DNA from: a virus
Taxonomy: Duplodnaviria > Heunggongvirae > Uroviricota > Caudoviricetes
Strand: one strand, 5' to 3'
IMG/VR virus record: IMGVR_UViG_3300015207_000448
Length of the DNA: 64,000 bases
A program made the translations under genes and the position numbers. A model generated the notes under the pieces. It made no database searches, was not told the DNA's origin, and saw only the letters and a list, made by a program, of their open reading frames with translations. Every line of letters starts with the position of its first letter. Position 1 is the stretch's first letter. Shown one piece after another: positions 6,830 to 64,000 of this stretch.

Positions 6830-6850
6830 GCTCAATCTTTAATCTTCACT

Positions 6851-12590: not shown

Positions 12591-12611
12591 GCCTTACTCT
12601 TCATTCTTTCT

Positions 12612-14442: not shown

Positions 14443-14444
14443 CT

Positions 14445-15800: not shown

Positions 15801-15805
15801 AACAA

Positions 15806-23284: not shown

Positions 23285-23677
23285 ATGAAAGCAAAAGTAA
23301 GAGCGACTGGAGAAATCGTGGATGTTTACAATGCACCGCATCACCCAGATGTTTGGTATGGAGCAAGCCTTCTCCCTTATGGCACACGTGAGCTGGAGTT
23401 CATCGCTTATTCTCGATCCTTAACCGATGGTTTGTTGGCTCAATTCTCTGATCAAGAACTTCGTGAAGAGCTGAAGAATCGTGTTGATCTCCGTAAAGCA
23501 GCCCATATTTTCCTCCGTTGTCGTGATTGTAAGCACTGTGGTGAGGGGTGCTGTCATAAGAGTAGCCGTTACAAGACCTCAGTGTGCTTCCTGAAACCCA
23601 AACCACAAGTCGGTCCTGACCGCTATTATGCGACTCTCCTTTCGAGGAAGGCATGTGAAAATTTTGAACCGAAATAA
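23285..23677 (+). CDS. Cys-rich hypothetical protein; paralogue of 38846..39244 (minus strand)
   Basis: Start at the internal Met of ORF 23060..23677; shared KATGEIVDV-N-P--PD-WYGA, RDCK-C-EG, KPKP--G--RYYAT-LS-K-CE-FEPK. Confidence 0.45.
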   Translation: MKAKVRATGEIVDVYNAPHHPDVWYGASLLPYGTRELEFIAYSRSLTDGLLAQFSDQELREELKNRVDLRKAAHIFLRCRDCKHCGEGCCHKSSRYKTSVCFLKPKPQVGPDRYYATLLSRKACENFEPK

Positions 23678-23678
23678 C

Positions 23679-34848: not shown

Positions 34849-36111
34849 ATGATTACAATCAACTATCAGATGTTCGGGACCAAAGGGTTCCAACTAAGAT
34901 TGAGGCTCTATCAGGATGGCGAGACAAAGTTTATCAACGTCACCAAAATGCTGAAAGGAGCCATCCAAAAGAAACACTGGAATCAGAAGAAGCAGCTCTT
35001 TATCCCAAGCTGCCCCTTCAGTGATGAGAACAATGCCATGCTGGTTCAGTTCCGGCAGAGGTACGATGAAATGGCAATCAACTGGACTGGCAGCGTGTTT
35101 GGTATGATAGCTGCTATGGAAACGGCCACAGAACCCTCTCAAAAGGCCCTGACGGTCTCAGAATTTATCCAGTATGTAGTTGACCAGCTCAACAAAAACA
35201 AGCACGCAGACGGCTCTGGAAAGGGCAGTTTTGAGAACTACCTGAAATGTGACAAAAGACTTCAGGAGTTCTGCAAGGCAAAAAAGATTAAATACTCAAA
35301 ACTGTTGATTACGGAGCTTAATGCAACTTTCGTGAATAACGTGTTTGAATGGGTCGAGCGCGCGCGTAAAGGCACAGGAATGTGCTATGTCTCAAAGATA
35401 CTCCATTCTTTGATTATGAAAGCTGATAAGGAGGGGTATCTGAAAGCTGAGGATTTCAAGAAATGCAACTGGTTCAAGAAACCAAGCTCCAGCTCCCAGA
35501 AGTTCCACACACTGACTGAAGAGCAATGTAAGAAGTTTACCACTCTGGATTTGTCATCAATCTCCAAGTCACCTCTGAATGAGCTGTACCGGGATTTCTG
35601 CCTCTTCATTCTCTACACCGGCCAGTCTGCTTGTGACGCGATCGCTCTCCGATATTCGGACATCAAGAAAATAGGCGGGATCAGTCACTTTGTGTTCAAC
35701 CGAAGAAAGATTGCTGAGAAGCAGGCGGTGCCTTGCTCTGTTCCAATCAATACAGAGCTTGACCGTATAATGCTCCGTTGGAGAAGGTTGGCAAAGGATG
35801 GGTACATTTTCCCCATCCGAAATAAGGAGAAGTTAAAAACTCAGACCACCAATAATGGGGATATAAAACACTTTATAGGGAATTTGAACAACTGGCTCAA
35901 AAAAGTCGGCAAGGCGCTGGGTTGTTCGTTTCCGCTGCATACCTACACTTTCAGGCACACAGCGATAACACATTATATCAGTAAGGGAGTGCCGGTCATA
36001 TATGTGTCGAATATGATGGGCACCAGTATAGAGAACTGTGAGAAGATCTACTACAACAATCAAGGTGATACTGCCAGCCGTAACAAAGTATTGGCAGCTA
36101 TGAAGTTCTAA
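34849..36111 (+). CDS. int: Tyrosine site-specific recombinase (integrase)
   Basis: C-terminal catalytic box HTYTFRHTAITHYISKGVPVIYVSNMMGTS; 420 aa; preceded by about 550 bp of noncoding DNA carrying the palindrome gtggtggcctggtggcaccac. Confidence 0.8.
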   Translation: MITINYQMFGTKGFQLRLRLYQDGETKFINVTKMLKGAIQKKHWNQKKQLFIPSCPFSDENNAMLVQFRQRYDEMAINWTGSVFGMIAAMETATEPSQKALTVSEFIQYVVDQLNKNKHADGSGKGSFENYLKCDKRLQEFCKAKKIKYSKLLITELNATFVNNVFEWVERARKGTGMCYVSKILHSLIMKADKEGYLKAEDFKKCNWFKKPSSSSQKFHTLTEEQCKKFTTLDLSSISKSPLNELYRDFCLFILYTGQSACDAIALRYSDIKKIGGISHFVFNRRKIAEKQAVPCSVPINTELDRIMLRWRRLAKDGYIFPIRNKEKLKTQTTNNGDIKHFIGNLNNWLKKVGKALGCSFPLHTYTFRHTAITHYISKGVPVIYVSNMMGTSIENCEKIYYNNQGDTASRNKVLAAMKF

Positions 36112-36567: not shown

Positions 36568-36778
36568 GAGTCCAGTATGAGAGTATGTAACAGACTCCGT
36601 TTCCCATATTTCCTAACTCAGCTTCAAGAATTACCGTCTGGCCTTTGGCAATCTTTTCTTTCAAAGGTTCTACACAATACTTCAGGAAAGTCTGATTTTC
36701 TTTACCAATAGGCCAATCCTTATCGAGTTTTGTGAGTACCTTATCGAGCATTGCGGGATTTGTCAGGCGGATTTTCAT
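36518..36778 (-). CDS. Small hypothetical protein
   Basis: ORF track. Confidence 0.3.
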   Translation of the reverse strand: MKIRLTNPAMLDKVLTKLDKDWPIGKENQTFLKYCVEPLKEKIAKGQTVILEAELGNMGNGVCYILSYWTLDEVPTDEEFLNNGNE

Positions 36779-37224
36779 TCGGGTTCGGAGATAACAACCC
36801 AGTCCTCAGCAAACACATCACTGATGGTTGGGGTCCATGAATTTGCTTCTCCAGTGTCTTTATTGTAGATTAGACACTGGTCTGTGTAGTCCACGAATGT
36901 TGCGTGTTCCATCACAAATTTCTTGGCTGCATCAGGAAGAGATTGCATCTTTGGAATGATCTCACCAGTGATATGAGCTGGAACTTGCTTGAACACTACC
37001 AGACTGAGACAATCCCAGCCACGTCTGCGAACCACCAGTCCTCGTTTCAGAGCTTTGATGGCATCGCCGAAGTCCATAACTTCAAGCTGTAACCAAGCGT
37101 TGTCATGGCCATAATCCACGGCAAACATGATCTGTTCTTCACTTTCTTTGTAGGTAGGATTGGCTTTTACAGCTTCCTGTGCAAAAGCCTTTGAAACTCC
37201 TACGATTGAATCAAACTTTTTCAT
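36775..37224 (-). CDS. DUF2829-family protein (Tad2-like candidate); paralogue of 25457..25966
   Basis: FGDAIKALKRGLVVRRRGWD ... SDVFAEDWVVI. Confidence 0.45.
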   Translation of the reverse strand: MKKFDSIVGVSKAFAQEAVKANPTYKESEEQIMFAVDYGHDNAWLQLEVMDFGDAIKALKRGLVVRRRGWDCLSLVVFKQVPAHITGEIIPKMQSLPDAAKKFVMEHATFVDYTDQCLIYNKDTGEANSWTPTISDVFAEDWVVISEPE

Positions 37225-42713: not shown

Positions 42714-43529
42714 TCATTTTTCTTCCTCCTTAAAACCTAATAAGTTACGGGCCACCACAATTTTGATATTGTCCGACTTCAGGAACTTCTTTCCTAAAGC
42801 ACACTGACAACACGGTTTAGCCTCCCTGAGATTGTTGAATATGTCAAGCATATAGTCATCATTGACATTTCCGAATGAGGGGCATAGGCAGGATTCTGAA
42901 AGATGCACATTGCCTTTGTAGTCAATACAAGGCTTACACACCACTCCCGGTGTATGATCCAAGCCAGTGAGTTTTCTGGTGGGGCTGGTTTGCTTGAAAA
43001 GTAAGTGCCCATTCAGACAAGACATATAGTGAGGATTGTCCGCTATTTCTTTCTGAGCCTGCTCATTTGTTTTGGCTCTACCCAAGTCCTGCATACTTCT
43101 GATTTCATCAGTAGTAAGAATAATCTTTGGTATGGCACTGAGTTCTTTGCTGTGCTCAATGATGAATGAGGCGTCTTTATACCACTTTGAATTAGTATAA
43201 ACTTGCATACCTACATAAGATTGGAGCTTTGCAAGTTTTATCATTTCTTCAGTGCGCTCCGGGAACCAAGTGCCATTTGAGGTCACTGTAAAGCCTCCAG
43301 GAGTCTTACTTTGTTTAACAAAGCGGTCGAGATACTGACAGAACTCGGTGAATTTAGGATGCTCTGTCGGCTCTCCACCAGTAATGATGTAGGCACTGGC
43401 ACCTAAGAATTGTCCGAATCTCAGGGCATTTTTGAAGGTGGTTTCGCTCATGTGTTCCCCATTGGGATTGGAGCAGTGCATACAATGAGCGCATCCTTCA
43501 TGGCATTTATTCGTTATCTGGATCAGCAT
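42714..43529 (-). CDS. Radical SAM protein with a C-terminal Cys-rich auxiliary (SPASM/twitch-like) region
   Basis: N-terminal CHEGCAHC (CxxxCxxC); C-terminal CKPC ... C-C ... CCQC cluster. Confidence 0.55.
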   Translation of the reverse strand: MLIQITNKCHEGCAHCMHCSNPNGEHMSETTFKNALRFGQFLGASAYIITGGEPTEHPKFTEFCQYLDRFVKQSKTPGGFTVTSNGTWFPERTEEMIKLAKLQSYVGMQVYTNSKWYKDASFIIEHSKELSAIPKIILTTDEIRSMQDLGRAKTNEQAQKEIADNPHYMSCLNGHLLFKQTSPTRKLTGLDHTPGVVCKPCIDYKGNVHLSESCLCPSFGNVNDDYMLDIFNNLREAKPCCQCALGKKFLKSDNIKIVVARNLLGFKEEEK

Positions 43530-52181: not shown

Positions 52182-53270
52182 TTATTTTCGCCATTCAGCT
52201 CGCATGGCCTCAATATTGATACCATTGACGACCAGAAAATCCTTCAGGATACCGAAGAGCTTATATCCCTCTAAATCTTTTTGAGATGCAAGCTCATAAA
52301 GATATTCCCGTGACATTTTTTGACTCATCTTTGGAAATCCACAATCGTGGAAGAGAATGAGGTTCTTCAGAGTGAAGAAGGCGCCGGCACCTTTATAGGC
52401 ATCTTTGAAAGCTCTGGACTGTTCCATATCAAAGAACAGACAAGTTTCTTTGACTGCCTTATAGAAATTGGTTGTTGCACGATATAGTGCGGCCGGTTGA
52501 CGGGTATTCCTGATTGAGCGGAGCAGCTTTTCAAGAGGCTCATACACCTTAGTCGGCAGGTCTTTAATGAAGATATTGGTGCCATCCAAGCGAACATAAG
52601 GAACACCCTTGCACGATCTGATACGGAGCTTTGTCACAATGTTTCTGACCAACTTAATGTAGTCGGTGGCCATCTGAACGACAACGCCACGATTGAACCA
52701 GCGATTGCGCTCTGCGAAGTTTTCCGGGTCAGTGACATTGAGCCTTGCCTGAACACGCAGTTCTTCAACAACCATTTCCCACTGATACTTGTAACCCTTG
52801 CGACGGAGGGCGGCAGTGAAGCCGATGGGCTGGCCGGTCTTGTAATCGGTTTCGGTCATCATGTGAAAGACCTGAGCCATAACCCAGCGACGGAAGAGGC
52901 GGCGGTCAGGAATCGTTTTGCTGGCACGAATTGCAGCGAAGATAGGATCGTCATCGGGAACTACAGCAAATTGACCGTCAGTGAGGCGACCGACTTCGTA
53001 GCTGCCGTCAGTGCCACGAATAGAGAAGAGGTTGGCCACGTTGACTCCGGCATTACGGAGAGCTTCGATTTTGGCCTCAGCTTCATTGAGCTTGTTGGCC
53101 GGAACGGGGATTTCTACGGCGATTGATGTTGGTACGCAGTGAACTGGCATTACAACATTCACTTCAGCTGCTTCTACTTCGAGATTGGCGCCACACTTGG
53201 GGCATTTTACGCTTACTTTCTTCATATTGGTTTTTATTTTGATGTTATTTGTTTTCTGATTTGGGTTCAA
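52182..53270 (-). CDS. Zn-ribbon hypothetical protein; paralogue of 16278..17384
   Basis: N-terminal CPKCGANL; shared blocks listed for 16278..17384. Confidence 0.5.
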   Translation of the reverse strand: MNPNQKTNNIKIKTNMKKVSVKCPKCGANLEVEAAEVNVVMPVHCVPTSIAVEIPVPANKLNEAEAKIEALRNAGVNVANLFSIRGTDGSYEVGRLTDGQFAVVPDDDPIFAAIRASKTIPDRRLFRRWVMAQVFHMMTETDYKTGQPIGFTAALRRKGYKYQWEMVVEELRVQARLNVTDPENFAERNRWFNRGVVVQMATDYIKLVRNIVTKLRIRSCKGVPYVRLDGTNIFIKDLPTKVYEPLEKLLRSIRNTRQPAALYRATTNFYKAVKETCLFFDMEQSRAFKDAYKGAGAFFTLKNLILFHDCGFPKMSQKMSREYLYELASQKDLEGYKLFGILKDFLVVNGINIEAMRAEWRK

Positions 53271-53706
53271 TCCATTCTTTCAGGATGATGAGTTCTTTTA
53301 CGGTAGGACTTTGCCAGAACCATTTATCCTTAGCAAATTCATACCATTTGAGAGAGCCGTTAAATATCATTATCAGGATATGGAGTTCCAACTTGATTTG
53401 AGCAACTTCTCGTGGTTCGCCATAGAGCATATCCTCATCTGAAAGCTGATGCTCAGACAGAGCATTGAAGTATTTTTTACGCTTATGATCACTTCGTTCA
53501 GATGGTAGGCTATGCTGATAGCGAATGAACAGCTGAGTAATAATAGTGAGCGGATCGTCAAATACCGGAAGCCCTAACTCACCCTCATACTCACCTTGTT
53601 TGATGACATATTTACCATCAATTTTGAGCGTGCGTTTCTGAAAGTCTATATGGAATTTTGACCCACACTTGACTTTATTAACACATTCATTATAAATGTT
53701 TTCCAT
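53245..53706 (-). CDS. Conserved hypothetical protein; paralogue of 15806..16264
   Basis: See 15806..16264. Confidence 0.5.
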   Translation of the reverse strand: MENIYNECVNKVKCGSKFHIDFQKRTLKIDGKYVIKQGEYEGELGLPVFDDPLTIITQLFIRYQHSLPSERSDHKRKKYFNALSEHQLSDEDMLYGEPREVAQIKLELHILIMIFNGSLKWYEFAKDKWFWQSPTVKELIILKEWIEPKSENK

Positions 53707-54553
53707 TTCTATTTGAATTAAAAAATTATAATCTCACTGACTTGGCACATTACTTTATCGTATTGATTAAAGAGCTGGTGACAAGGTTCCGAATCGAACA
53801 AGCCAGGTGGCTAACCTGGCTGTCGATTCGAGTCCCTTGGTTAAACCAGCTCTATTGAACTTGCCAGTCTTGATTAAATCCTCTGTGCTGAGGTTTATCA
53901 GTTCTCAAAGCATTGATGCGTAACTCTATTCGGTTGATGGAATCCAGATAAGGACTCAGGTAGAACCGGCTGAAACATCCCAGGCAAGGATGTGAAAGCC
54001 GGTGGAACCTGAGTCCTATTCAGGTCTGGATGACTAAACAGTTGCTTTCTTGAACTGAGGTGCCGCATTACATTGGCTACTGAAGATGATTTGGTATATC
54101 GCTTTAAGAGGTTGATGTTTGGGCTTTACGGCTGCTGATGGAGGGTTGATAGAGCCTCCTAACAGCAGCTTAATGAAGCCAAAACTAAAATTATCATCTC
54201 TCAGATTGCTGCCATATACTTGGCTTGATGTATCTGTCATGTCACTGATATGTTTCTTTACTATCTTGATATTCTTCAGAAGTTACAGATGGACCAGGAT
54301 GAGTCATCTACGATAGGAGATGAATCTACTGGTCCATCTGCTATTAATTCTGAATAATTGAATGATTGACCCTTCAGATAAGACCGCATATTCGGTAATT
54401 GGTAGTCAGACAATATCGTGTGTGGCTATAAGGATTTGATGTCAGAAGGATCTGAGACTGTTGGCCAAAGGCGATAGCATGGCCCACAGTTCGATGATCC
54501 TTCTCTGAAAGGATTGCCGTTCTACCATTCATTGCACACTCAATCTATATCGG
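53707..54553 (-). other. 0.85-kb hairpin-dense noncoding region 3' of RT2, the positional counterpart of 14445..15800
   Basis: An 83-nt quasi-palindrome agagctggt ... accagctct at about 53771-53853; ggactcaggt ... acctgagtcc with nested accggc/gccggt; gctgctg ... cagcagc; gatggaccag ... ctggtccatc; no ORF of 60 aa or more. Confidence 0.4.
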
Positions 54554-55828
54554 TTATCCGTACTGATGAAGAGAGGAAACCAGCGTTCTGTAAACATCCT
54601 TACTGGTCAAGAGTGCATTTTGCATACACCCTATCGTAAAAAAGCCGGAGAACATCTTGTCTGTCTTTATACGGTTAGCTTTCACATTCCGTCCTATGCC
54701 TCGCTGTATGCAGCCATCGGATTGATTGGCAATATATCCCAGTCCTCCGATTTTAGTCTTGCCAGTCACGACAGCCCTCAAACAATCCATCACAAAGAGT
54801 GTGAGAGTTTGAATGTCTTTCTTCACGTTGATGACCGGCAACACCTGAGTGGCCCAGCTATACTCACCATTTCCGCAATAGAGATAATGATTTATATCAT
54901 TCGTGGCTTTGATGAGGCTTTTCTTTTTGGCTTTGATAGTGCGGGATTCAATCTCTTTCTGGAAGGCTTTTATTCGGGTTGAGCTGAGAGAAATGGAGGC
55001 TCCTTTGATTGAAAACCCAAGGAATTTGAACCACCGAGTATGAGTAAGAAACTCTATCTTTTTGGGATTGAGTTTCATTTCTCGCTTCGTGACCTCTTCA
55101 GTCATTATCTCCATTGCTTTCATATAGTCCGGCCCGACAAATAAGGCATCATCAGAATATCGGACATACTCGCCATTCAGTTGGCTCAGTCTTTCATCCA
55201 GGGTAAACATTACTACATTTGCCAACCAAGAAGCGACCGAACAGCCTTGTTTGAGTGACTGATAGGCTTTCTGGAGTTTGCCGTCAGTATCAAAATACCA
55301 GTCCGAATGATAATACTTTCGGAGAACATCTATGATAGCGGAATGGCCGTGTTTTGCCTCGACTTTATCAAAGGCTTCGTCAATAAATCTGATAGGTACA
55401 GAATCGAAATACTTACTGAAATCAGACTTCCACCCAATCACTTCGCCCTTGGTTTGGCAAATTCTCTTGGAGATCTCTTTCACAATCTTGCCACAACCGA
55501 TACCTTTCTGATAAGATTGACAAGTGGGATGAATCATCTCAGGCATCAGCTCAAATAAAAGGTCATTAGCGATACTGAGAAATATGCGGTCAATCGGCTC
55601 ATTGACATAGACTGTCCGGAACTCTCCGTTATCCTTGGGGATAAGAGCCGTGTGGGGCGGTGCTATCTCATATCGGCCGTCTCGTATAGCAGCGTACATA
55701 GCAGCTCTGGTATCAGGTTTTGTAAGCTGATAGAGATGAGCCTTATTGATGTGCTTCCCGACACCTTTTTCAATGGCATATCGCCATCTCTCAGTATCGA
55801 AAAACATTTCTAATATCTTATCATTCAT
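54554..55828 (-). CDS. Reverse transcriptase RT2; paralogue of RT1 (about 75% aa identity by eye)
   Basis: Same motif set, including YVRYSDDALFVG and FKFLGFSI. Confidence 0.85.
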   Translation of the reverse strand: MNDKILEMFFDTERWRYAIEKGVGKHINKAHLYQLTKPDTRAAMYAAIRDGRYEIAPPHTALIPKDNGEFRTVYVNEPIDRIFLSIANDLLFELMPEMIHPTCQSYQKGIGCGKIVKEISKRICQTKGEVIGWKSDFSKYFDSVPIRFIDEAFDKVEAKHGHSAIIDVLRKYYHSDWYFDTDGKLQKAYQSLKQGCSVASWLANVVMFTLDERLSQLNGEYVRYSDDALFVGPDYMKAMEIMTEEVTKREMKLNPKKIEFLTHTRWFKFLGFSIKGASISLSSTRIKAFQKEIESRTIKAKKKSLIKATNDINHYLYCGNGEYSWATQVLPVINVKKDIQTLTLFVMDCLRAVVTGKTKIGGLGYIANQSDGCIQRGIGRNVKANRIKTDKMFSGFFTIGCMQNALLTSKDVYRTLVSSLHQYG

Positions 55829-56075
55829 GGACTGGTTCTTTACTTATTGTGACATTGTAAGACTCGCTATAATATTCATCTATTGTAGCGGAAAAACGGT
55901 CATCTTCATCTGCTTCAATGGTATCTTCAGACCATCCGGGCTTTTTAAGAATGTCCTTACGTTCTTGCTTTAAGGCGCGTCTGGCACCTTCAAGTGTTGC
56001 CCACAGAGTGAAAGAAGTATAGTTGTCTGAAGGTCGAACACCCTCATATTCAACTGTTACACAGAATACTTCCAT
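55821..56075 (-). CDS. Small acidic protein whose stop overlaps the RT2 start
   Basis: ORF track. Confidence 0.3.
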   Translation of the reverse strand: MEVFCVTVEYEGVRPSDNYTSFTLWATLEGARRALKQERKDILKKPGWSEDTIEADEDDRFSATIDEYYSESYNVTISKEPVHE

Positions 56076-56077
56076 AG

Positions 56078-56395
56078 CTATGAGAATAAAGGCTTTTCGC
56101 CGTTATAGTTTTGGATAATCCATTCCAGCAAGAGCTTGCGATTCTTATCGTCAAGGTCTGCATAGAACTTGACCATATAGGTGTCAGGATCCTGAGTTCT
56201 GGTAGCGTGTTGCCACTTTCCCAGCATGTGACTGATATGACAAGTCCATTTCACTTCTTTGAGAAATTCCGGCACATTTACCGTATCTGCACCACCACCG
56301 GGAAAGGTGACAGTCATTGGAACTACCTTGTAATTCCAGCCATGAAACAGCCATTTATTGATGGCTATCATAGCGATTTTAAGATTTTCAGTCAT
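56078..56395 (-). CDS. Hypothetical protein
   Basis: ORF track. Confidence 0.3.
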   Translation of the reverse strand: MTENLKIAMIAINKWLFHGWNYKVVPMTVTFPGGGADTVNVPEFLKEVKWTCHISHMLGKWQHATRTQDPDTYMVKFYADLDDKNRKLLLEWIIQNYNGEKPLFS

Positions 56396-56400
56396 AGCTG

Positions 56401-57696
56401 TTATGCGATTTTTGATATAATTTTTGAAGTATTAGACTTAATCAATGATACTATTCTGTCAAAGTGTTCTGGAACCTGGTTGTATTTGCCACGGCATTGG
56501 AGGACCGAGAAGTCCTCTAAAGAAAATTCTATAGTTGCGATTGACACACCATTAACCAGGGCATGAAAAATAAGCACATTGTCGTCAGAATAATACCTAT
56601 TAGTGAAGACACAGTGGTGCATATATTCACCCTCTTCTACAAATTCTTTTACCGACTGAAGAGGTTTGACCACAATTTCCTTATCGACAAATTCCAGATC
56701 TAAAAATATTGATTTGGCTTTCTTATATCGAGCTTCATCAACTTTGTGATTAACCTCATAGCGTTGTAAAGGTGTCATTTGTCTCTCGCGCTCTCTTCGT
56801 CTATCTGCTTCATCCATCTTAGCTCGCTTTTTAGCAATCCATAAATCATGAGCCTCTTTAAGATTGTCAGGACAGATGAATTTTGGATTTCTCAAATCTT
56901 TCCCACAGTATTCAAGAGCGTCGAGCATATCATACCAAGTTGAAGCATCGGTAATCTTATAATTGTGCCGGAAAGCGACCTTAGCGGAGGGCCAATATTT
57001 CTCAAACTCATACTTTTTAGCCAATGAGAAAGCTACCATTTTGTATTGCCTTAATTTCCATGCCGTCTCAGTTTTATTGCAAGTGAGTAAGCGTTGGAAC
57101 AAAGTATATGGGGAACAGTTATGAAAATCACCGTTATATCCGTTTCTTCGGATTTCTGGAATCACTGAAGATTGCCCGATAACTTTGTAAGGCGTGACAT
57201 AGTGGCCATAGTTTTCTGTTCGGATTTCCATTTCGCTGTCATAGTTCCATATATCGCAATAACTGCACATCCAATGTCGAGCACGACCAACTATCACTTC
57301 TTTGGCATCTGGAGTAAGCCAGCGTTGAAAAGCCTCACTAATCCAGTATGTAGCCTTCTCGCCTCTTCTCAGATTTGTCTGCATAAAGAACATTCTAACA
57401 ACCTGACAACCTCCACGCTTGGTTACGATTGCGAAATAAGCTCTATCACAAAAATTCCACTTGCGAGTTTTGTCAACATCCAGCTTTGCGGAGCAGTGAG
57501 GACATACAACCTTAGTAGCCTCATCACCTTTCCAAGAGTGACCACAATCCAGACACACATATTCTTTCTTAGAATTGTACTTGGCAATATGCGGAGCCAC
57601 TTTCCTGACAGCTTCCTTATATTGATGTTCGTTCAAAGGAGAGAGTGTTTTGGATAACTCCAAAATTTTTCTTTGAAATTTGTTTCTGGGTTTCAT
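56401..57696 (-). CDS. PcfJ-like protein
   Basis: N-terminal zinc ribbon CLDCG ... CPHC and the C-terminal MHHCV motif that I recall for the PcfJ family. Confidence 0.5.
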   Translation of the reverse strand: MKPRNKFQRKILELSKTLSPLNEHQYKEAVRKVAPHIAKYNSKKEYVCLDCGHSWKGDEATKVVCPHCSAKLDVDKTRKWNFCDRAYFAIVTKRGGCQVVRMFFMQTNLRRGEKATYWISEAFQRWLTPDAKEVIVGRARHWMCSYCDIWNYDSEMEIRTENYGHYVTPYKVIGQSSVIPEIRRNGYNGDFHNCSPYTLFQRLLTCNKTETAWKLRQYKMVAFSLAKKYEFEKYWPSAKVAFRHNYKITDASTWYDMLDALEYCGKDLRNPKFICPDNLKEAHDLWIAKKRAKMDEADRRRERERQMTPLQRYEVNHKVDEARYKKAKSIFLDLEFVDKEIVVKPLQSVKEFVEEGEYMHHCVFTNRYYSDDNVLIFHALVNGVSIATIEFSLEDFSVLQCRGKYNQVPEHFDRIVSLIKSNTSKIISKIA

Positions 57697-57717
57697 ATTG
57701 TGAAAGAGCTGAAAGGA

Positions 57718-58122
57718 TTAGAAAATCGGAATATCCAGCGGCTCCGGGATATTGGGGTCAACAGCAGCTTTGGGCTTTCTTGGTTTGCGCTGCTTAGGCT
57801 TTTCTTCTGAAGTGATCTGCTCAGGGGAGGCTGGGGGTTCTGGAGAAGGACTCTGTACGGCTTCCACTTTATTCTTGGGGCCTTCTACTACGATGTCATC
57901 TTCATCATAGTAGTGGACTGCCAGTCCAAATACCTCATCGTCGGAAACACCGACACAACGCTCACCCTTGGGCTTGTTCTTTTCGACTTGCTGGAAGATG
58001 TACTTGCAACACTCTTTGATATTTTTGTTGGGTTTTGCGTATGTTGTTGCGAACTGAGCATCATCTTCAGCGCGCTTGTCAAGATAGTTCTTGATAGCAG
58101 TTTCAAAAGTGGTAAATTCCAT
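57718..58122 (-). CDS. PcfK-like protein, tentative
   Basis: Small acidic protein with a Pro/Lys-rich tail adjacent to the PcfJ-like gene; the assignment rests on the typical pairing. Confidence 0.35.
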   Translation of the reverse strand: MEFTTFETAIKNYLDKRAEDDAQFATTYAKPNKNIKECCKYIFQQVEKNKPKGERCVGVSDDEVFGLAVHYYDEDDIVVEGPKNKVEAVQSPSPEPPASPEQITSEEKPKQRKPRKPKAAVDPNIPEPLDIPIF

Positions 58123-58134
58123 ATTGAAAGATTT

Positions 58135-58659
58135 TTAGGAGTTAAAGAAAAAGAATGTATATCTTGTGTTTACATTCTCCTTTGGGGGAGAAGTCAACTG
58201 TCTGATTGCGAATTTGAAGGTGTTAGCTTTGAAAGTATGCTCAAAGCCATTCATAGGTTCGTGATGAGTGTACCGTATTTCAACTTTGGCATCATCAATT
58301 ACTTTATTGAGGATTACCGGGTTGGTATGCCATTTGCCTTTATGTTTCCAGCAATATAAGGTTACATCATCAGTCTGGAGGGATTTGAAGTCATCTATTT
58401 TGACTAATCCATATTCACTCATAAGCTCATCTAACAGACCTAATAAATAGTCTGGTAATGGGTCAGTTGAGTCTTTTTTCTTGCCATTATAAAGAGATTC
58501 AAACGTAAGTAGAAATGCCTGTTTTATCTCTATCGAGTCAATGCACTTACTTAATTTGTACTTACAGAATTTAATGATTTGAGGTTCTATTTCTTTGACG
58601 GCCTCATTATTCTTTGCTCGTAATAACTGACGAACATGATCAAGATTGGGGCGTTCCAT
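58135..58659 (-). CDS. Hypothetical protein
   Basis: ORF track. Confidence 0.35.
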   Translation of the reverse strand: MERPNLDHVRQLLRAKNNEAVKEIEPQIIKFCKYKLSKCIDSIEIKQAFLLTFESLYNGKKKDSTDPLPDYLLGLLDELMSEYGLVKIDDFKSLQTDDVTLYCWKHKGKWHTNPVILNKVIDDAKVEIRYTHHEPMNGFEHTFKANTFKFAIRQLTSPPKENVNTRYTFFFFNS

Positions 58660-58664
58660 AGAAG

Positions 58665-58745
58665 TAAAAGTTAAACCCCTTTATCCCTAACTCGCTACGC
58701 TCGTGTCGCTACGCTCCAAGGGTTAAAGGGATAAAGGGGTTAAGG
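58665..58745 (-). promoter_or_regulatory. Large hairpin immediately 3' of the VR3 stop: a 15-bp stem (aacccctttatccct / agggataaaggggtt) and a 38-nt loop containing a gagcgtagcga direct repeat
   Basis: Read directly from the sequence; could be the DGR target hairpin or a terminator. Confidence 0.4.
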
Positions 58746-58746
58746 G

Positions 58747-59460
58747 TTAATGAAATGCTGCCACAGCGCGGACGTAGAGGCTGCTCGTGGCCTTAGTGCC
58801 CCAGCCGTTGAGGCTGCCGCCGTACAGGGACAAGCCCCAAGCGTACGTCGCCGAGCCCTCAGTGCTGGTCCAATACCAGCCATCCTTAATGCGGCTACCG
58901 CCGCTAAGTTCGATGGCGGCATTGATTGAACGCTTGTTGAGATAGATGAGATAGAGTTCAGCAACTGAAGGGATCCACTCGTCATCCTCCAGCTCTATGC
59001 CGGTGCCGATAGACTTGATATGCTCAGTGTTTGACTGGCCGTTCCAATCAGCAACAGCATCATCATATTCAGTGATGTAACCGTCATAACCGCCGGGGTC
59101 TTTCTGGTTGGTAAGGGGCTGTTCCGGATAATCCTCCAGATTGACTGCGAGAGCATGGCGACCCATCACTACGCCGATACGCTTTACCGTCTTTGTCGGA
59201 GCATTGCGCTTCTTGTAGTCGAACTTTTCAACTGTGTTATCCTCGTAGATGTAGTACACTCCATCATTCAGAATGGCTTGATGAGAGCCTTCAGTCTGCT
59301 GAATGTCGATTTTGATTTGCTCAACCTCCTTTATCGGAGATTTGATGAAGTCATACACAGCCTGTGCTTCTTCACCGAAGTCACTGAAGAGAGCAAGTTT
59401 CAGCTTCTCATCCATCGGAAGAGAAGCGTAGATGGTTTTTGCGATTTCGTCTGAGATCAT
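58747..59460 (-). CDS. DGR-type target protein 3 with a DUF1566/C-type-lectin-like C-terminus
   Basis: EWIPSVAELYLIYLNK ... DGWYWTSTEGSATYAWGLSLYGGSLNGWGTKATSSLYVRAVAAFH. Confidence 0.7.
   Translation of the reverse strand: MISDEIAKTIYASLPMDEKLKLALFSDFGEEAQAVYDFIKSPIKEVEQIKIDIQQTEGSHQAILNDGVYYIYEDNTVEKFDYKKRNAPTKTVKRIGVVMGRHALAVNLEDYPEQPLTNQKDPGGYDGYITEYDDAVADWNGQSNTEHIKSIGTGIELEDDEWIPSVAELYLIYLNKRSINAAIELSGGSRIKDGWYWTSTEGSATYAWGLSLYGGSLNGWGTKATSSLYVRAVAAFH
58750..58875 (-). repeat. Candidate variable region VR3
   Basis: GC-rich (about 62%) C-terminal segment homologous to VR1 and VR2 at the protein level; boundaries inferred. Confidence 0.45.
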
Positions 59461-59732
59461 ATTTTTATATTTTTGATGATGTGTTACTTACCTTTGCTGA
59501 GGCAGACGGCCAGCTTGTCAAGGTCGTTGGTGCCAAAGTGATTTTTCAATTCCTCTAAGACAGAGGGCTTCTGGTTTTTTAGCAACTGCTTGATAGTAGC
59601 AGGATTGCCACCTCGATATAATTCAAGGCAGTTCGTAGCTTGTGGTGTCATACGTTTTTGGTTGTTATGTTTTTATGGGAATAGTCTCATTGTAGAAGAA
59701 AATTAGAATGAGAACGAGATTTTTAAGAGTTT

Positions 59733-60116
59733 TTAAGGAATAGTCACATCCTGCACCTCATCAGTTTCCGGGATAAGGTCGATGACATATTCCAACTGAC
59801 CGTGTGCTATGCTGGTCAGTTCCTGCTCATCATCTGCCCACCCCTCCTTGGGGAAGCCATAAATGACCAGACAACCAAATTCTTCAATGGCAACGCGAGA
59901 GATATAAAAATCCTCATAAGTATCCATCCATTTGGTAGAAGCGGCGATGATAGGGGCATTGTTCTTTTCCTCTGAGATTTTCTCGTCATCTCCATCATCT
60001 TCATCGGTGTGAATAAACACATATTCATTACCGTGAGCCTTAATTGCTGCTTTAAGCTCTTCACGAGTACAATCGTCAAGATGCTTGTATTGATTGTAAA
60101 AATCGGTATGTCTCAT
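59733..60116 (-). CDS. Acidic hypothetical protein; paralogue of 10986..11579
   Basis: See 10986..11579. Confidence 0.45.
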   Translation of the reverse strand: MRHTDFYNQYKHLDDCTREELKAAIKAHGNEYVFIHTDEDDGDDEKISEEKNNAPIIAASTKWMDTYEDFYISRVAIEEFGCLVIYGFPKEGWADDEQELTSIAHGQLEYVIDLIPETDEVQDVTIP

Positions 60117-60640
60117 TTTTGAAAATCTTTAACTGTAAGTCGTTTGAATTTTGTATCGGCCGGCACGATATGCCAGTGAAGTCTGTTCTGACTATATCCA
60201 CAGTACACGAAAAGGAAATGCTCAATCAGTTCATCTTCCTCATCAGGGATTTCATAGAAGTAGTCGTATTCTTCGTTGTCAATCAACCATTGGGGTAACT
60301 GACAGTGAAGCCACTCTCTCTTCACTTTAATGATTGCGACAACCGGAGTATCAGTATCACAATCAATGATTGCAATGTGGATTTCTTCGTTCATTCGTTT
60401 TTGGAAGGCTTCTCCCCATTCTCCCAGCACCCTTTGATTGACTGGAAGCTGAACCGGGAAGTCGGGATGATATTCGAGGTCAACGGTTTCTTGGAAAGCC
60501 TGACCAATCGCTTCAGCTGTAGGATTACCTGCCTTTCTTTCGCGCTCATAACACTTTTTGAAGTATTTATCAAAAGTGTGACGCCAGGCTATATCAGATT
60601 GAGGGGGTATTGCCATATCACCAACAATTATTTGAAACAA
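60113..60640 (-). CDS. Hypothetical protein
   Basis: ORF track. Confidence 0.35.
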   Translation of the reverse strand: MFQIIVGDMAIPPQSDIAWRHTFDKYFKKCYERERKAGNPTAEAIGQAFQETVDLEYHPDFPVQLPVNQRVLGEWGEAFQKRMNEEIHIAIIDCDTDTPVVAIIKVKREWLHCQLPQWLIDNEEYDYFYEIPDEEDELIEHFLFVYCGYSQNRLHWHIVPADTKFKRLTVKDFQK

Positions 60641-60899
60641 AATCAGCTATTTCACTCGCCTCTCCATATTCCAGCTCATCAGGAATGTAGAAGAAAATCT
60701 CTTCATCAACGGCGGCTGCTTCAGCATTAAGTGGATTGCCTGAAGAGTCTATCAACAATCCTTCAAGGGACTCAACCGATACAGAAACCTCAATGGTTTT
60801 CATATTTTGTGCCGAATCCTCATCGCTTTGGTCAACGATATAGATGTCAAACACTGGATAGTGTTCGCCATTATATTCTATGTATCTATCGGGTATCAT
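60618..60899 (-). CDS. Small acidic protein
   Basis: ORF track. Confidence 0.3.
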   Translation of the reverse strand: MIPDRYIEYNGEHYPVFDIYIVDQSDEDSAQNMKTIEVSVSVESLEGLLIDSSGNPLNAEAAAVDEEIFFYIPDELEYGEASEIADFVSNNCW

Positions 60900-60901
60900 A
60901 A

Positions 60902-61495
60902 TTAAAAGGGTAAAGACTTAGAAGTTTCGCCCATCAGGTCAACTGCAAGACCATTTGGGCAGAGTTTATCAAACCAGTGCCAGATGTCAAAGCGGGATGT
61001 TCCAGCTTCCCAGAAATAGAAAGGGGTTTCAATCTCATCTTCATCATTGATTGGAGTATTAGCGAATTTGCTCCACATCTCCTGAAGTTCCCATAAGTAA
61101 GCGTCCTTTTCAATGCGAGCTTTTATTCTTGCTAATATGTAAGGACTTCTTGGGGCATCTGGATCGAAGAAGCAACCCTCTTCAGAAAAAGTGGGAAGGC
61201 GTTGATTGTCTTTTGCCTCATAATATCTCGTCAACCACCAAGGCTCCATACCAAAAAGGGATTCTTGATATTCTAAGACCACCATAAACTGACGGATTGG
61301 GCAATCGTCATCTTCCATTCGGTAGTAATGCCCATTTGGTCCATCACAATCTCTGCTATAATGACCAGGAACTTTGCAATCAGCAATCCATTCTCCCCAA
61401 TCATTTTGGCGAACCGCAATCACCTTGCCACCCCAAGGAAAGTAACTCAGGGTGTTATTAAACTGCTGTTCCACCAGTTCTTTCGTTATTATCAT
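60902..61495 (-). CDS. Hypothetical protein; its C-terminus is paralogous to 10583..10984
   Basis: FDIWHWFDKLCPNGLAVDLMGE. Confidence 0.45.
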   Translation of the reverse strand: MIITKELVEQQFNNTLSYFPWGGKVIAVRQNDWGEWIADCKVPGHYSRDCDGPNGHYYRMEDDDCPIRQFMVVLEYQESLFGMEPWWLTRYYEAKDNQRLPTFSEEGCFFDPDAPRSPYILARIKARIEKDAYLWELQEMWSKFANTPINDEDEIETPFYFWEAGTSRFDIWHWFDKLCPNGLAVDLMGETSKSLPF

Positions 61496-62199
61496 AATCC
61501 AGGAATTGTTGGCTGGTTGCGCAAAGCCTCCAGACGTTCTTGTTCTTTGAAATAAGCATCAAGCTCTTCTTTAGCCTCATCTGTGGTGGGAACAAGTGTC
61601 ATTGTATCTCTGCTGCAACTCAGTTCTTCATAAATTTGGTCAGCCATACCCCAATCACCATCGCCGGAGATTGACTCCTGAGTTTTGAGGCAATAGAGAT
61701 ACCAAAGAACACACTCCAGATAATTGGTGTTATCTGGGTCGATAATGGCACCGAACCAATCTTCTATATCGTTGCTCATCCAGCTCCAGAAACCGGGGCG
61801 ATCAGAATGATTTTCTTTGATGATTTTTGCAAGTTCAACACGAATGTCAAGCTCGCTCATCAGAGAGATAATCTTTCGAGTGTACTCATCCCAGTCACCA
61901 ACCTCTACATAGCAGATTACTTGGTCGTTTGTGAAATTATATTCTCTGGGAGATTCTACGGACTCTTTGGTAAGCTCCATTTTGAGTCCGAGCTTGTCAT
62001 TCAGTTCACTTACATACATTTCAGCGAACTCTTTTGCAACCTCAGAACGATAATCTTCAGGCAACTCCCAATCTGAGAGATGCTTGAAGTCGGGATATTG
62101 CTCTTCCAGTCTTTCCCGACCGTCATACTCGACATATTCTTCCCCGAACATACTGCCGTAAAATCCGGGAAAGCTCTTAACAGCTATTGAAGTTTGCAT
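61492..62199 (-). CDS. Acidic hypothetical protein; paralogue of 8901..9767
   Basis: See 8901..9767. Confidence 0.5.
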   Translation of the reverse strand: MQTSIAVKSFPGFYGSMFGEEYVEYDGRERLEEQYPDFKHLSDWELPEDYRSEVAKEFAEMYVSELNDKLGLKMELTKESVESPREYNFTNDQVICYVEVGDWDEYTRKIISLMSELDIRVELAKIIKENHSDRPGFWSWMSNDIEDWFGAIIDPDNTNYLECVLWYLYCLKTQESISGDGDWGMADQIYEELSCSRDTMTLVPTTDEAKEELDAYFKEQERLEALRNQPTIPGL

Positions 62200-62210
62200 A
62201 GTGATATGGA

Positions 62211-62672
62211 TTATTTCTTTTCTCCCAGCTCACGCTTTGCGATTTCATTGGTGGTGTACCAATCCACGTAGCTCCAGCCGGTTCCGAAATGTGTGACACA
62301 GAGGATATAGCAATCAAGGAGGTCACTGTAAGTAAAAATCAGACCAAAAGCATTGGTGAGATATTCCACATCAAATTTGGAGCAATCAGTTATGTACCAC
62401 TGATAGATTTCCACCGGCTCATCGCAATATCCACATTCAGGACATTCCATATTGGGACCATACTGCGATAGCTCTGCACCACATTCAGGACACTTGGGTT
62501 TTATTTCCTCGCCCTCTTCATCATATTCTGGCTCATACTCCAGATTTACAATAGGTTCAAAGTTATCCCATATTGAATCATCAATGTTAGGGATATTGTT
62601 GCAGAGAACCAGTGCATTGTTGCACCAGCTCACCGCAACCGCGAAGTTGGTATGATATAATTCCTTTTTCAT
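62211..62672 (-). CDS. Hypothetical protein with zinc-ribbon pairs
   Basis: CPECGAEL ... CPECGYC. Confidence 0.35.
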   Translation of the reverse strand: MKKELYHTNFAVAVSWCNNALVLCNNIPNIDDSIWDNFEPIVNLEYEPEYDEEGEEIKPKCPECGAELSQYGPNMECPECGYCDEPVEIYQWYITDCSKFDVEYLTNAFGLIFTYSDLLDCYILCVTHFGTGWSYVDWYTTNEIAKRELGEKK

Positions 62673-63274
62673 TGTTCTTCAGATTTTTTGTGAACTCTCA
62701 TCATTTCATCACGGAACTGTTCTTTGGTCGGGAAATCTGTGAGATTTTCGTGACCGTTATCATCTTCAAAAAGAGCTTCCATAAGGTCGGATGCACCATA
62801 CTCTTTCAGAAGATGATCGTATATTCGCTCACCTATCCAGTCAGGATAATCAGGAGCGTTTTGAGCTTCTTCCTCTTCCGCTTCAGTTGAGGCGAAATCA
62901 AGATAATCGCCACCAAAGCAATTCTCATAGAGATAGACGATAGCATCAGTGCCTTCTCGTTCTTTGACAGTCTGGAGGAATGAGGCAAACCACTCTTCAA
63001 CATATTCTTCCAAATCATCATCATCGAGATAATTGGGGTCGTGCTGGCGGTCAAAATCCTCTTCATCTTCGTAGCCGAGATGTTGGGCGATTGTATCGAA
63101 ATCGAACCAGAACATATCGTTGATAGCGGTGTCAGTCCACCCGTCAGCCGGCTCAATTTCTTCGAGAAATTCCTCTATGCGGTCAAGTTCATCAGCAGTG
63201 CAATTATCAGCTCTGTCCTTACCTCCGCTCCAAAATTTGAAGTTCCGGAGACTTTCTTCAACTGTATATTTCAT
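62669..63274 (-). CDS. Highly acidic hypothetical protein; paralogue of 7277..7852
   Basis: See 7277..7852. Confidence 0.5.
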   Translation of the reverse strand: MKYTVEESLRNFKFWSGGKDRADNCTADELDRIEEFLEEIEPADGWTDTAINDMFWFDFDTIAQHLGYEDEEDFDRQHDPNYLDDDDLEEYVEEWFASFLQTVKEREGTDAIVYLYENCFGGDYLDFASTEAEEEEAQNAPDYPDWIGERIYDHLLKEYGASDLMEALFEDDNGHENLTDFPTKEQFRDEMMRVHKKSEEQ

Positions 63275-63279
63275 TATAT

Positions 63280-63561
63280 TTAGGGGATATTTGATAAATT
63301 ATCTCTTTCATAATCCTCTGGCTCACCGTCATTAATGGACCGATAAAAATGATCTCCCTCGATATAACTCATCAATGTCATATAGACATAAAACCAATCC
63401 TCTACGGTCAGAGAATCAATATTTGGAATATCTTTGGCAATCAGTGCCCCCAAAAGATCCCCAATACAAACATCATCGTTATGATAGATATGATAAATAT
63501 ATTCTACCACTTTCTGAGCTTCTTTAGAAAGCGTTTGATATAATTTATTATTACTAATCAT
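63280..63561 (-). CDS. Hypothetical protein
   Basis: ORF track. Confidence 0.3.
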   Translation of the reverse strand: MISNNKLYQTLSKEAQKVVEYIYHIYHNDDVCIGDLLGALIAKDIPNIDSLTVEDWFYVYMTLMSYIEGDHFYRSINDGEPEDYERDNLSNIP

Positions 63562-63566
63562 AGATT

Positions 63567-63896
63567 TTATTTTAATTGGTGGTTATTATGCCAATCTATT
63601 TCAGTTTCAGTAGCTTCTCGATAAAGCATAAAACACCCGCCCAAATTTGAATTATATAAGAGAGTGTAAATGCCATTCTTATCAGCATAAGACGTGTCGC
63701 CTATCTTGCCAATCATCGGCTCTTCTTCAGAAAGCTCATTTTCTTCATCATCCCAATCACTGAGATAGTCAATGACTGGTTGAGAATTACCTTCGCAATA
63801 GTATAGGCTAATACCTGAGAACACAGCCTCAATGCGATTATAGTCATCATCTGCGCTTTGCACAAATCTGACAATGGAATATATTTTGTTTTTCAT
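63567..63896 (-). CDS. Acidic hypothetical protein
   Basis: ORF track. Confidence 0.3.
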   Translation of the reverse strand: MKNKIYSIVRFVQSADDDYNRIEAVFSGISLYYCEGNSQPVIDYLSDWDDEENELSEEEPMIGKIGDTSYADKNGIYTLLYNSNLGGCFMLYREATETEIDWHNNHQLK

Positions 63897-64000
63897 TTTG
63901 TGGCGAAATAATAATTTCCATCAATTTTGAATATCCACCAGAAACTCTCGTGATACCGATATGCTTTCTTTCCATTGATGCTGAGTTCAATCCAATCTAC

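Follow-up and report, generated by a model that had tools for sequence, protein, structure and literature searches.

Does a reverse transcriptase (RT) gene that follows, on the same strand, a gene with a variable repeat form a DGR with that gene? The question is raised by the right arm of the window, the whole 64-kb stretch of DNA analysed here, in which target 3 is followed by RT2 and in which the original prediction saw a DGR-like cassette. We suggest that the two are very probably independent retroelement-related features of temperate Bacteroidales phage that stand side by side by chance, with the DGR core remote, RT2 a UG27 enzyme unrelated to the variable repeat (VR3), the five genes between them accessory, and the mirror-image arm a second prophage. 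Both features are of known kinds, one a DGR with a remote target and the other a UG27 system of the sort already described. The features of the locus are these.

58747..59460, minus strand: target 3 ORF, 237 aa, no signal peptide; predicted remote DGR target
58751..58864, minus strand: variable repeat VR3, 114 nt, homologous to an external TR
58751-58774, minus strand: non-mutated 3' end of VR3, IMH-like (last ~24 nt)
58674..58741, minus strand: hairpin just 3' of the target 3 stop codon (arms 58741-58727 and 58688-58674, loop 58726-58689)
55821..58659, minus strand: five-gene phage accessory block, belonging to neither retroelement
58135-58659, minus strand: spacer ORF, 174 aa
57718-58122, minus strand: spacer ORF, PcfK-like (Pfam PcfK, E 4e-24)
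56401-57696, minus strand: spacer ORF, PcfJ-like (Pfam PcfJ, E 3e-35)
56078-56395, minus strand: spacer ORF, 105 aa
55821-56075, minus strand: spacer ORF, 84 aa
54554-55828, minus strand: RT2, 424 aa (RVT_1, E 3e-21); predicted UG27 class (UG/Abi class 2)
53707..54553, minus strand: predicted UG27-associated structured non-coding region, 847 nt, five tandem units
53245..53706, minus strand: p153, first conserved UG27 partner protein
52182..53270, minus strand: p362, second conserved UG27 partner (gene callers place the start at 53225, giving 347 aa)

The ORFs of target 3 and RT2 were both confirmed as originally called, and the predicted spacing of about 2.9 kb holds as well, the gap being 2,918 bp with five ORFs inside, PcfJ- and PcfK-like genes among them by their Pfam matches. 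The 174-, 105- and 84-aa spacer ORFs matched no family in Pfam and further family searches, and the ORFs flanking RT2 had no family match, so that none of Avd or HRDC type was recognised there. The block containing PcfJ and PcfK occurs in the closest UG27 loci only.

The variable repeat of target 3

The C-terminus of target 3, which carries VR3, is a predicted C-type-lectin-like (Lcl_C/DUF1566) domain. Its own match to that family is weak (E 1.2e-4, 22.8 bits, against a Pfam cut-off of 34.9), and its last 77 aa are 56% identical to the primary DGR target, the one adjacent to the TR, which itself clears the Lcl_C cut-off with 36.8 bits. The N-terminal part of target 3 has no counterpart in the primary target, and the protein belongs to PHROG 4245. 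The exact target 3 protein was not found in the protein collection, where the neighbouring RT2 occurs in 2,980 blocks.

When compared with the external TR (cognate form CACTGAGAACTCGGCGACGAACGC..., with loci L015, L018, L028, L040, L041 and L082 as references), VR3 is changed at 17 of the 35 adenine positions and at none of the 79 others, an adenine-only relation. The adenine-linked variability that the original prediction looked for among relatives was also found: 21 near-identical related loci carry 16 distinct versions of VR3, and the columns that vary across relatives comprise 27/35 TR adenines as against 4/79 other positions (Fisher p 5e-15). This hypervariability extends to near-clonal sequences, as eight window-like loci have 31 polymorphic columns within the 114-nt repeat and 3 in the 560 nt upstream. 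Since there are seven distinct VRs among these eight loci, with upstream sequence differing at just those three positions, diversification appears to be very recent or ongoing. On sequence grounds, target 3 carries a true DGR variable repeat and is a genuine target of a DGR.

The hairpin predicted after the VR, with a 15-bp stem and a 38-nt loop, is present and conserved with compensatory changes. Its loop contains a direct repeat (GAGCGTAGCGA, twice), and in an alignment of 10 sequences 94.7% of cells are paired and 5 of the 15 pairs change on both sides, giving a covariation score that none of 500 shuffles reached. The same architecture stands after every primary and remote VR and after none of the TRs, and we regard this hairpin as a target-site element common to both kinds of target of one DGR.

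A DGR core outside the window

Within the 64-kb window no further copy of VR1, VR2 or VR3 was detected, even with adenines in the subject counted as matching, and the window contains no DGR RT and no Avd (phmmer and tblastn with two Avd query proteins). A TR of the target 3 type, which the original prediction had proposed to seek, was found outside it, beside Avd and a DGR RT in related phages. The inferred TR core was recovered from 18 viral, 3 genome and 8 metagenome stretches, and in every one an RT ORF follows it directly; where the gene content was inspected, the TR is preceded by a bAvd gene. In these relatives the core is canonical, with an Lcl_C target, Avd, TR and an RT with the IGxxxSQ motif, adjoining tail genes. 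The TR-adjacent RT reads MPIGNLPSQ at this motif; among solved structures its closest match is 8ub7 (E 2.5e-19), taken here to be the Bordetella bRT, a DGR enzyme.

In four whole IMG/VR contigs, the remote target and the DGR core are ~50 kb apart and on opposite strands. TR, Avd and RT lie in the same genome as the target in two IMG/VR contigs with window-like arms, as well as in the cultured phage BS-TP1. The contig IMGVR_UViG_3300013414_000053 has RT2 at 100% identity and DNA 97.7% identical to window positions 58709-64000, and between its VR and its own TR there are 15 differences, all at A sites; IMGVR_UViG_3300019365_000009 has 14, likewise all at A sites. Remote VRs track contig-specific or sample-specific TR variants, each going with the variant on its own contig.

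Bacteroides phage BS-TP1 (PQ571274.1) is a 111.7-kb temperate phage of B. salyersiae BG8 (PMC12694917), and its genome plan is the same as that of the window phage, with a DGR core, a remote DUF1566 target and a UG27 module. The Avd-TR-RT core lies at 26-28 kb, by the tail genes and on the other strand, ~51 kb from the DUF1566 gene gp76 and the UG27 RT gene gp79. The latter occupies 79.4-80.6 kb, and 0.8 kb upstream stands gp76, in which 11 A sites and 1 non-A site are changed relative to the TR. The TR of BS-TP1 belongs to the left-arm (VR1/VR2) type rather than the VR3 type, gp79 is 70% identical to RT2, and BS-TP1 lacks the PcfJ/PcfK block of the window's right arm. Its publication names gp27 as the sole DGR target (PMC12694917).

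Following established DGR biology, the Avd-RT complex would reverse-transcribe the TR RNA, misincorporating opposite its adenines, and the resulting cDNA would replace VR3, a retrohoming step for which the unmutated VR 3' end and the hairpin with its conserved 38-nt loop may serve as guides. We infer that the DGR core is present in the window's own genome, with an expected site ~45-50 kb past the window's right end, on the opposite strand; conceivably, the core acts in trans from another replicon or has been lost in some lineages. It is quite improbable that VR3 is an orphan here, left as a frozen relic of past diversification after loss of the core. Such a relic would fit with the lack of a TR in the 64 kb, with the 167-kb JGI contig Ga0134538_1000039, which has an identical right arm and was not among the metagenome matches to the TR core, and with one sample in which the right arm and the DGR core are on different scaffolds. 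However, the expected core site falls outside the window, the variant of the DGR RT that matches is abundant (1,240 blocks), and both the seven VRs among eight loci that hardly differ upstream and the agreement of remote VRs with contig- or sample-specific TR variants argue against a frozen repeat.

Remote targets are a recognised, under-counted feature of DGRs (PMC8144416). As in canonical DGRs such as that of Bordetella phage BPP-1 (Mtd-Avd-TR-bRT), TR-to-VR differences here are confined to adenines in NNC codons, the variable domain is C-terminal and, by prediction in target 3, C-type-lectin-like, the unmutated 3' end of the VR is followed by an inverted repeat, and, in the window's relatives, Avd and an IGxxxSQ RT stand beside the TR. 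Target 3 departs from the canonical arrangement in its distance from the TR, on the opposite strand and among early or accessory rather than tail genes, in an N-terminus unlike that of the primary target, and in having its core outside the window. The BPP-1 hairpin has a short stem and a 4-nt loop, in contrast to the 15-bp stem and conserved 38-nt loop found here.

RT2 and the UG27 system

To judge from profiles and motifs, RT2 is a full-length UG27-class UG/Abi reverse transcriptase and not a DGR enzyme. It matches the PADLOC RT_UG27 profile (PDLC03765) over positions 1-420 of 420 at E 1.1e-230, with UG26 as the next-best family at E 2e-33 and Drt9, UG17 and Drt2 as the other next-best profiles; RT1 likewise aligns with the whole of the UG27 profile (E 8e-229). 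The best solved relatives of RT2 are group II/retron-type RTs, DRT9 and DRT2 (9ioa, 9c0i), and the same search of solved structures gave no match to bRT 8ub7. Its identity to the DGR RT of the relatives is 24%, over 123 aa only, and its motif 4 (LKQGCSVASWLAN) is without IGxxxSQ, having QGCSVASW where DGR RTs have IGNLPSQ.

The 847 nt downstream of RT2 contain no ORF of at least 70 aa on either strand and match no Rfam family. The region is built of units of ~140-195 nt, each with a long hairpin (at about 54445-54512, 54283-54342, 54130-54169, 53943-54031 and 53768-53851) and then a conserved tail (ATCAn5ATAAAGnAAYGYRYCAn6TGAG). Its fold z-scores are -6.5 and -5.0 (-2.8 to -6.6 per unit), a third value for the spacer after a UG27 RT is -7.0, and 7 of the 24 pairs in the last unit show compensatory changes. 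Matches to the tail motif with E<1 in the 64-kb window occur downstream of RT1 and RT2 only, and 66 of the 71 matches in 31 loci fall within the spacer between RT and p153. The left arm and 29/30 viral loci have homologues of p153 and p362 downstream of the RT, and gp79 of BS-TP1 is followed by a 1.35-kb unannotated spacer with the same tail motifs and by homologues of both proteins. Family and fold searches matched neither p153 nor p362 to any family or fold; in p362, a CPxCG zinc ribbon at the N-terminus precedes a helical body. RT2, the predicted RNA region, p153 and p362 together make up one UG27 system. By analogy with its class-2 relatives DRT2, DRT9 and DRT10, this system would most likely bind an ncRNA of its own and, in the course of infection, copy part of that RNA into cDNA.

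The partner clusters and ncRNA of UG27 have already been described in gut phages (Mestre et al. 2022, NAR, PMC9226505), where a class-2 UG/Abi RT without extra domains is associated with two families of unknown fold, as here, and a structured ncRNA separates the RT from the gene that follows, as is predicted here too. Called UG27 partners here by position and conservation, p153 and p362 may correspond to members of Mestre's clusters 336, 337 and 346. The described ncRNA has three long stem-loops, whereas there are five hairpin-plus-tail units in the right arm and about eight, in tandem, in the left. UG27 is found in Bacteroidota gut phages with no defence-island enrichment (PMC9226505), and no cDNA product or phenotype of UG27 is on record in the literature covered. 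DRT2 (UG2), DRT9 (UG28) and DRT10 (UG17) resemble RT2 in that the RT adjoins a structured ncRNA; UG27 differs from them in being phage- rather than host-borne, in its partner proteins and in its multi-unit RNA. Carriers of the module are IMG/VR contigs with tail and baseplate genes and the temperate BS-TP1. An integrase with host flanks was also found.

Could the UG27 system and the remote target be functionally coupled, with their adjacency selected, either through action of the target protein with the UG27 RNP or through an aid to retrohoming? The synteny of target and UG27 RT, 0.8-2.9 kb apart, is seen in both prophages, in ~14 IMG/VR loci and in BS-TP1, and spans RT identities down to about 65-70%. 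Yet while the UG27 module is kept in 29/30 loci, only ~14 have an Lcl_C target upstream, about half having none within 6 kb, and the intervening genes vary by lineage. The UG27 RNA region has no sequence link to the VRs, as a search for any window sequence that it could template with tolerance at A gave 0 matches (positive control, 12/12). DGRs with remote targets are not known to need an extra RT, and we consider such coupling very improbable. A broader idea, tentative and rather unlikely, is that the DGR diversifies, besides a tail-associated receptor binder, small proteins without a signal peptide ~50 kb away, always near UG27 and among early, accessory and anti-defence genes, that these are possible intracellular binders, and that the adjacency could be a functional link and not inherited gene order. 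If true, such binders might be aimed, for instance, at host defence or takeover targets that vary.

Hardly credible is the reading of RT2 and target 3 as one DGR-like cassette, with the UG27 RT retrohoming VR3 from an unrecognised or distant TR: the strand, the order, the short distance, the recurrence of the arrangement and the true DGR diversification of VR3 suggest it, but we reject it, keeping target 3 as a DGR target, given a UG27 RT without the DGR motif, no TR or Avd in the window, an RNA that cannot template the repeat, many UG27 loci without a target, and a complete canonical DGR with an exact TR in the same phage genomes.

The two arms

The mirror-image arrangement noted in the original prediction is real, the left and right halves of the window being colinear homologues with 30-74% amino acid identity (RT1 and RT2, 74%). 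Each arm is a prophage in its own right, related to the other and placed tail to tail with it in opposite orientation; each carries a UG27 module and one or more remote DGR targets of its own, and it is in this sense, and in no other, that they are independently maintained copies, as had been proposed. The other proposal, of one RT serving both arms in trans, does not hold: VR1 and VR2 have many non-adenine differences from the VR3-type TR and therefore need another TR. Two findings together had been named as telling against a DGR here, RTs of a non-DGR class and a VR3 without adenine-linked variability. RT1 and RT2 are indeed both non-DGR by their UG27 profile, but because the variability of VR3 is adenine-linked, the refutation fails in its second half. 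In the BS-TP1 record, gp79 is annotated as "tail protein", with a PHROG reverse-transcriptase match as a second annotation.

VR3 and its external template

The right arm carries the two genes originally predicted there, target 3 (237 aa) and the reverse transcriptase RT2 (424 aa), and the 2,918 bp between them hold five ORFs, among which are PcfK-like (E 4e-24) and PcfJ-like (E 3e-35) genes. The mirror layout was also confirmed: the window consists of two gene sets that are colinear but diverged and that converge on each other, with the left-arm reverse transcriptase RT1 74% identical to RT2.

Features of the two arms
6704-6830, plus strand: VR1, a left-arm variable repeat
12465-12591, plus strand: VR2, a left-arm variable repeat
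13183-14442, plus strand: RT1
14443-15805, plus strand: tail array downstream of RT1
54554-55828, minus strand: RT2
58747-59460, minus strand: target 3
58751-58864, minus strand: VR3

The two genes had been read as one DGR-like cassette, a reading that stands for VR3, which is by its substitution pattern a true and probably active DGR target, and falls for RT2, a UG27 enzyme that has RNA and protein partners of its own. When six near-identical loci were aligned, the target-3 gene was identical save for an approximately 100-nt 3' stretch with codon variation of the NNC pattern, and in eight window-like loci there were 31 polymorphic columns in the VR and 3 in the 560 nt upstream. Against the external TR, VR3 differs at 17 of 35 adenine and 0 of 79 non-adenine positions. 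The comparison across relatives bore out the expected adenine-linked variability, as 21 loci with 16 distinct VRs gave variable columns at 27/35 adenine versus 4/79 other positions (Fisher p 5e-15). Exact protein matches in the assembly collection were found for RT2 in 2,980 blocks and for target 3 in none. One AAC-derived codon is missing (CCTC---GGCTGG) from 5 of the 16 VR versions (those of the related loci L001, L005, L007/L048, L037, and L038), so DGR replacement at this site can carry a 3-nt deletion or tolerate one.

The VR3-type TR was inferred from the VR variants of near-identical loci and then searched for. A first search pattern retrieved VRs only, because it began 3 nt outside the 5' boundary of the true TR; a TR-specific 34-mer recovered 18 viral, 8 metagenome, and 3 genome stretches, the last from Prevotella sp. 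MGM2, Lepagella muris, and a Porphyromonadaceae MAG. The adenine-tolerant template that the original prediction called for does exist, but in relatives, beside a canonical Avd and RT. In every TR-bearing stretch CACTGAGAAC...GCATTTCA precedes an RT ORF by about 70 nt. In the window's own genome the TR would be expected as CACTGAGAACTCGGCGACGAACGCTTGGAACTTGAACCTGAACGACGGC on the plus strand, 40–60 kb past coordinate 64000, with a bAvd gene and an IGNLPSQ RT alongside. The RT ORF of the TR-bearing stretches has PIGNLPSQ and YVDD motifs, and among solved structures it is closest to 8ub7 (E 2.5e-19), taken here to be the Bordetella bRT. Wherever the neighbouring genes were examined, a bAvd protein (Pfam E 7e-14; PHROG "Avd protein of DGR") and a 273-aa Lcl_C protein are encoded ahead of this ORF, and this core adjoins baseplate and tail-fibre genes. 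Also near the core is a gene for the large subunit of ribonucleotide reductase, with weak precomputed Pfam matches to intein-splicing and LAGLIDADG homing-endonuclease families (related loci L040 16115-19393, L041, L042, and L086-L088).

Neither an Avd nor a DGR-type RT was found within the 64-kb window, and ungapped identity scans, adenine-tolerant 50-nt sliding scans, and repeat finding for a TR of VR1, VR2, or VR3 there returned only the VRs themselves. VR3 is very probably served in trans by a canonical DGR beyond the window, with the core presumably in the window's own genome. Two IMG/VR contigs hold a window-like arm and a core together, and in both the contig's own TR matches the remote VR at every non-adenine position, with 15 and 14 adenine-site changes. 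In four contigs the DGR RT and the remote target lie about 50 kb apart in contig coordinates, on opposite strands. One of the two contigs with both arm and core, IMGVR_UViG_3300013414_000053, encodes RT2 at 100% identity and its DNA is 97.7% identical to window 58709-64000. No overlap was found between arm loci reaching 10 kb past the window's right end and core loci widened by 10 kb, and the TR search did not retrieve a 167-kb contig carrying an identical arm. Remote targets of DGRs are acknowledged but under-sampled, and metagenome surveys state that they miss them (PMC8144416); the VR3 comparisons provide a clean, statistically strong case of a DGR apparently acting on a target some 50 kb away.

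Hairpins at the variable repeats

The hairpin predicted after the target-3 stop codon is present, with 15-bp arms (58741-58727 and 58688-58674) and a 38-nt loop. In relatives the same architecture, TTAACCCTT followed by a stem of about 15 bp and a loop of about 35–40 nt containing GGAGCGnAGCGAC...GAGCGnAGCGAG, recurs after the primary VRs next to the TR and is absent after the TRs. Stems of primary and remote targets differ in sequence in a compensatory manner, 5 of 15 pairs changing on both sides. Stem cells are paired in 94.7% of cases, falling to 58% or lower when the register is slid, and the covariation score is 0.33 as against 0.17 in shuffles (0/500 shuffles reach 0.33). Given the shared architecture and the compensatory changes, the hairpin is a target-site element belonging to this one DGR, a distinctive large-loop structure that marks all of its targets.

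As had been noticed, the left-arm hairpin is unlike that of VR3: VR1 and VR2, 85% identical and with most of their differences in NNC codons, have in common a short GC hairpin, CCGGGCCAG...CTGGCCCGG, that belongs to a different DGR lineage. Two patterns for their TR gave 0 matches in viral contigs, and the closest TR, with 9 non-adenine differences, is that of the Bacteroides phage BS-TP1.

RT2 and the UG27 RNA region

RT2 had been taken for a DGR enzyme, an assignment that is overturned by full-length matches of RT2 and RT1 to the PADLOC profile RT_UG27 (E 1e-230 and 8e-229), the next-ranked PADLOC profiles being UG26, Drt9, and UG17. No NCBIfam match passed its threshold, and those below it were to group II, Drt2, and retron families. 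RT2 has the motifs QGCSVASW and YSDD, and its nearest solved relatives are group II/retron-type, DRT9-type, and DRT2 enzymes. Mestre et al. (2022; PMC9226505) described UG27 from gut phages as a class-2 UG/Abi RT accompanied by a pair of proteins of unknown fold and an adjoining structured ncRNA, with no enrichment in defence islands. As a UG/Abi-class RT is not working as the DGR enzyme here, there is no new kind of diversity-generating system; both parts are of known kinds, DGR remote targets being acknowledged and UG27 described.

Among 30 IMG/VR loci retrieved using RT2, 29 retain the unit of RT, a 0.5–1.3 kb spacer, and homologues of the partner proteins p153 and p362, in that order, and only about 14 of the 30 (the nearest relatives and two others) have an Lcl_C-type gene in the 6 kb upstream of the RT. 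In p362 a CPxCG zinc ribbon at the N-terminus precedes a helical body (AF2 pLDDT 80). Megablast of 53000-60000 against plasmids and phages gave no match. In many viral contigs (those of the related loci L048, L049, L050, L051, L054, and L058) the assembly stops 2.5–5 kb downstream of the UG27 RT, which suggests a recurrent assembly break or genome end near the module.

The spacer after RT2 (53707-54553) has no ORF of at least 70 aa on either strand, and its folding is far more stable than that of shuffled sequences (z -6.5 and -5.0). It consists of five units, each a long hairpin and then a conserved tail, ATCAn5ATAAAGnAAYGYRYCAn6TGAG. Across the whole window, matches to the tail profile at E<1 occur only downstream of RT2 and RT1, and 66 of 71 matches in 31 related loci fall in the RT-p153 spacer; these loci include BS-TP1, which was not used in building the profile. 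The hairpin sequences are entirely different between lineages while the fold is kept, and compensatory changes among seven relatives affect 7 of the 24 pairs predicted in the last unit. In the left arm, tails recur every ~165 nt across 14443-15805. They overlie a 328-aa ORF (14449-15435, plus strand) that has no family match and is therefore probably not a gene, and the stretch looks like an eight-unit UG27 RNA array. This refines the description of the UG27 RNA region to tandem hairpin-plus-tail units that differ in number between phages. Rfam returned nothing relevant for the region, and a scan for sigma-70 promoters and terminators did not exceed shuffled expectation. The possibility that the spacer is a hidden TR was rejected, since either array, tried as a template with mutable adenines, gave 0 matches anywhere in the window, against 12/12 in the positive control.

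A cultured phage and the prophage setting

The genome plan of core and remote arm recurs in BS-TP1 (PQ571274.1), a cultured temperate Bacteroides phage with B. salyersiae BG8 as its lysogenic host. Its core of gp26 (Avd), TR, and gp25 (RT, with a YVDD motif) lies at 26–28 kb on one strand (stretch L119, 21270-32367), and the annotated gp25 CDS includes the TR because its start lies upstream of it. On the other strand, at 78–84 kb (L118, 72351-87610), are gp76 (DUF1566), gp79, a 1.35-kb spacer, and p153 and p362 homologues. Although labeled "tail protein" in the record, gp79 is a UG27 RT with a YSDD motif, 70% identical to RT2. Against the TR, gp76 has 11 differences at adenine sites and 1 elsewhere, a pattern that marks it as a remote DGR target, and its hairpin is of the short GC type found after VR1 and VR2; the isolation paper names gp27 as the only DGR target (PMC12694917). 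BS-TP1 is thus a phage in which the putative remote target gp76 and the UG27 system of gp79 could be tested genetically. An RtcB-like ligase is encoded near its UG27 module, and an RtcB RNA ligase also occurs in the window.

Other features of the window
20271-21479, plus strand: RtcB RNA ligase
23628-24944, plus strand: ParA-type ATPase
34849-36111, plus strand: tyrosine integrase
36775-37224, minus strand: Tad2-like (anti-Thoeris) protein
42714-43529, minus strand: radical SAM protein

The integrase and the genes to its right recur in four other contigs behind differing bacterial genes (SusR, DAGK, peptidase M16, Dus, and polysaccharide synthase). The integrase belongs to the right-hand element, and the window therefore comprises two related prophages, tail to tail, each with a separate UG27 module and one or more remote DGR targets of its own. 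The hosts are Bacteroidales, source names including Bacteroides acidifaciens, Muribaculum, and Prevotella sp. MGM2. In one related locus (L005; GCA_002754755.1, PDYJ01000002.1, 479000-500274, on a 1.87-Mb contig) NikA-like and relaxase genes precede the arm, which two DDE transposases interrupt, suggesting a rearranged or mosaic copy.
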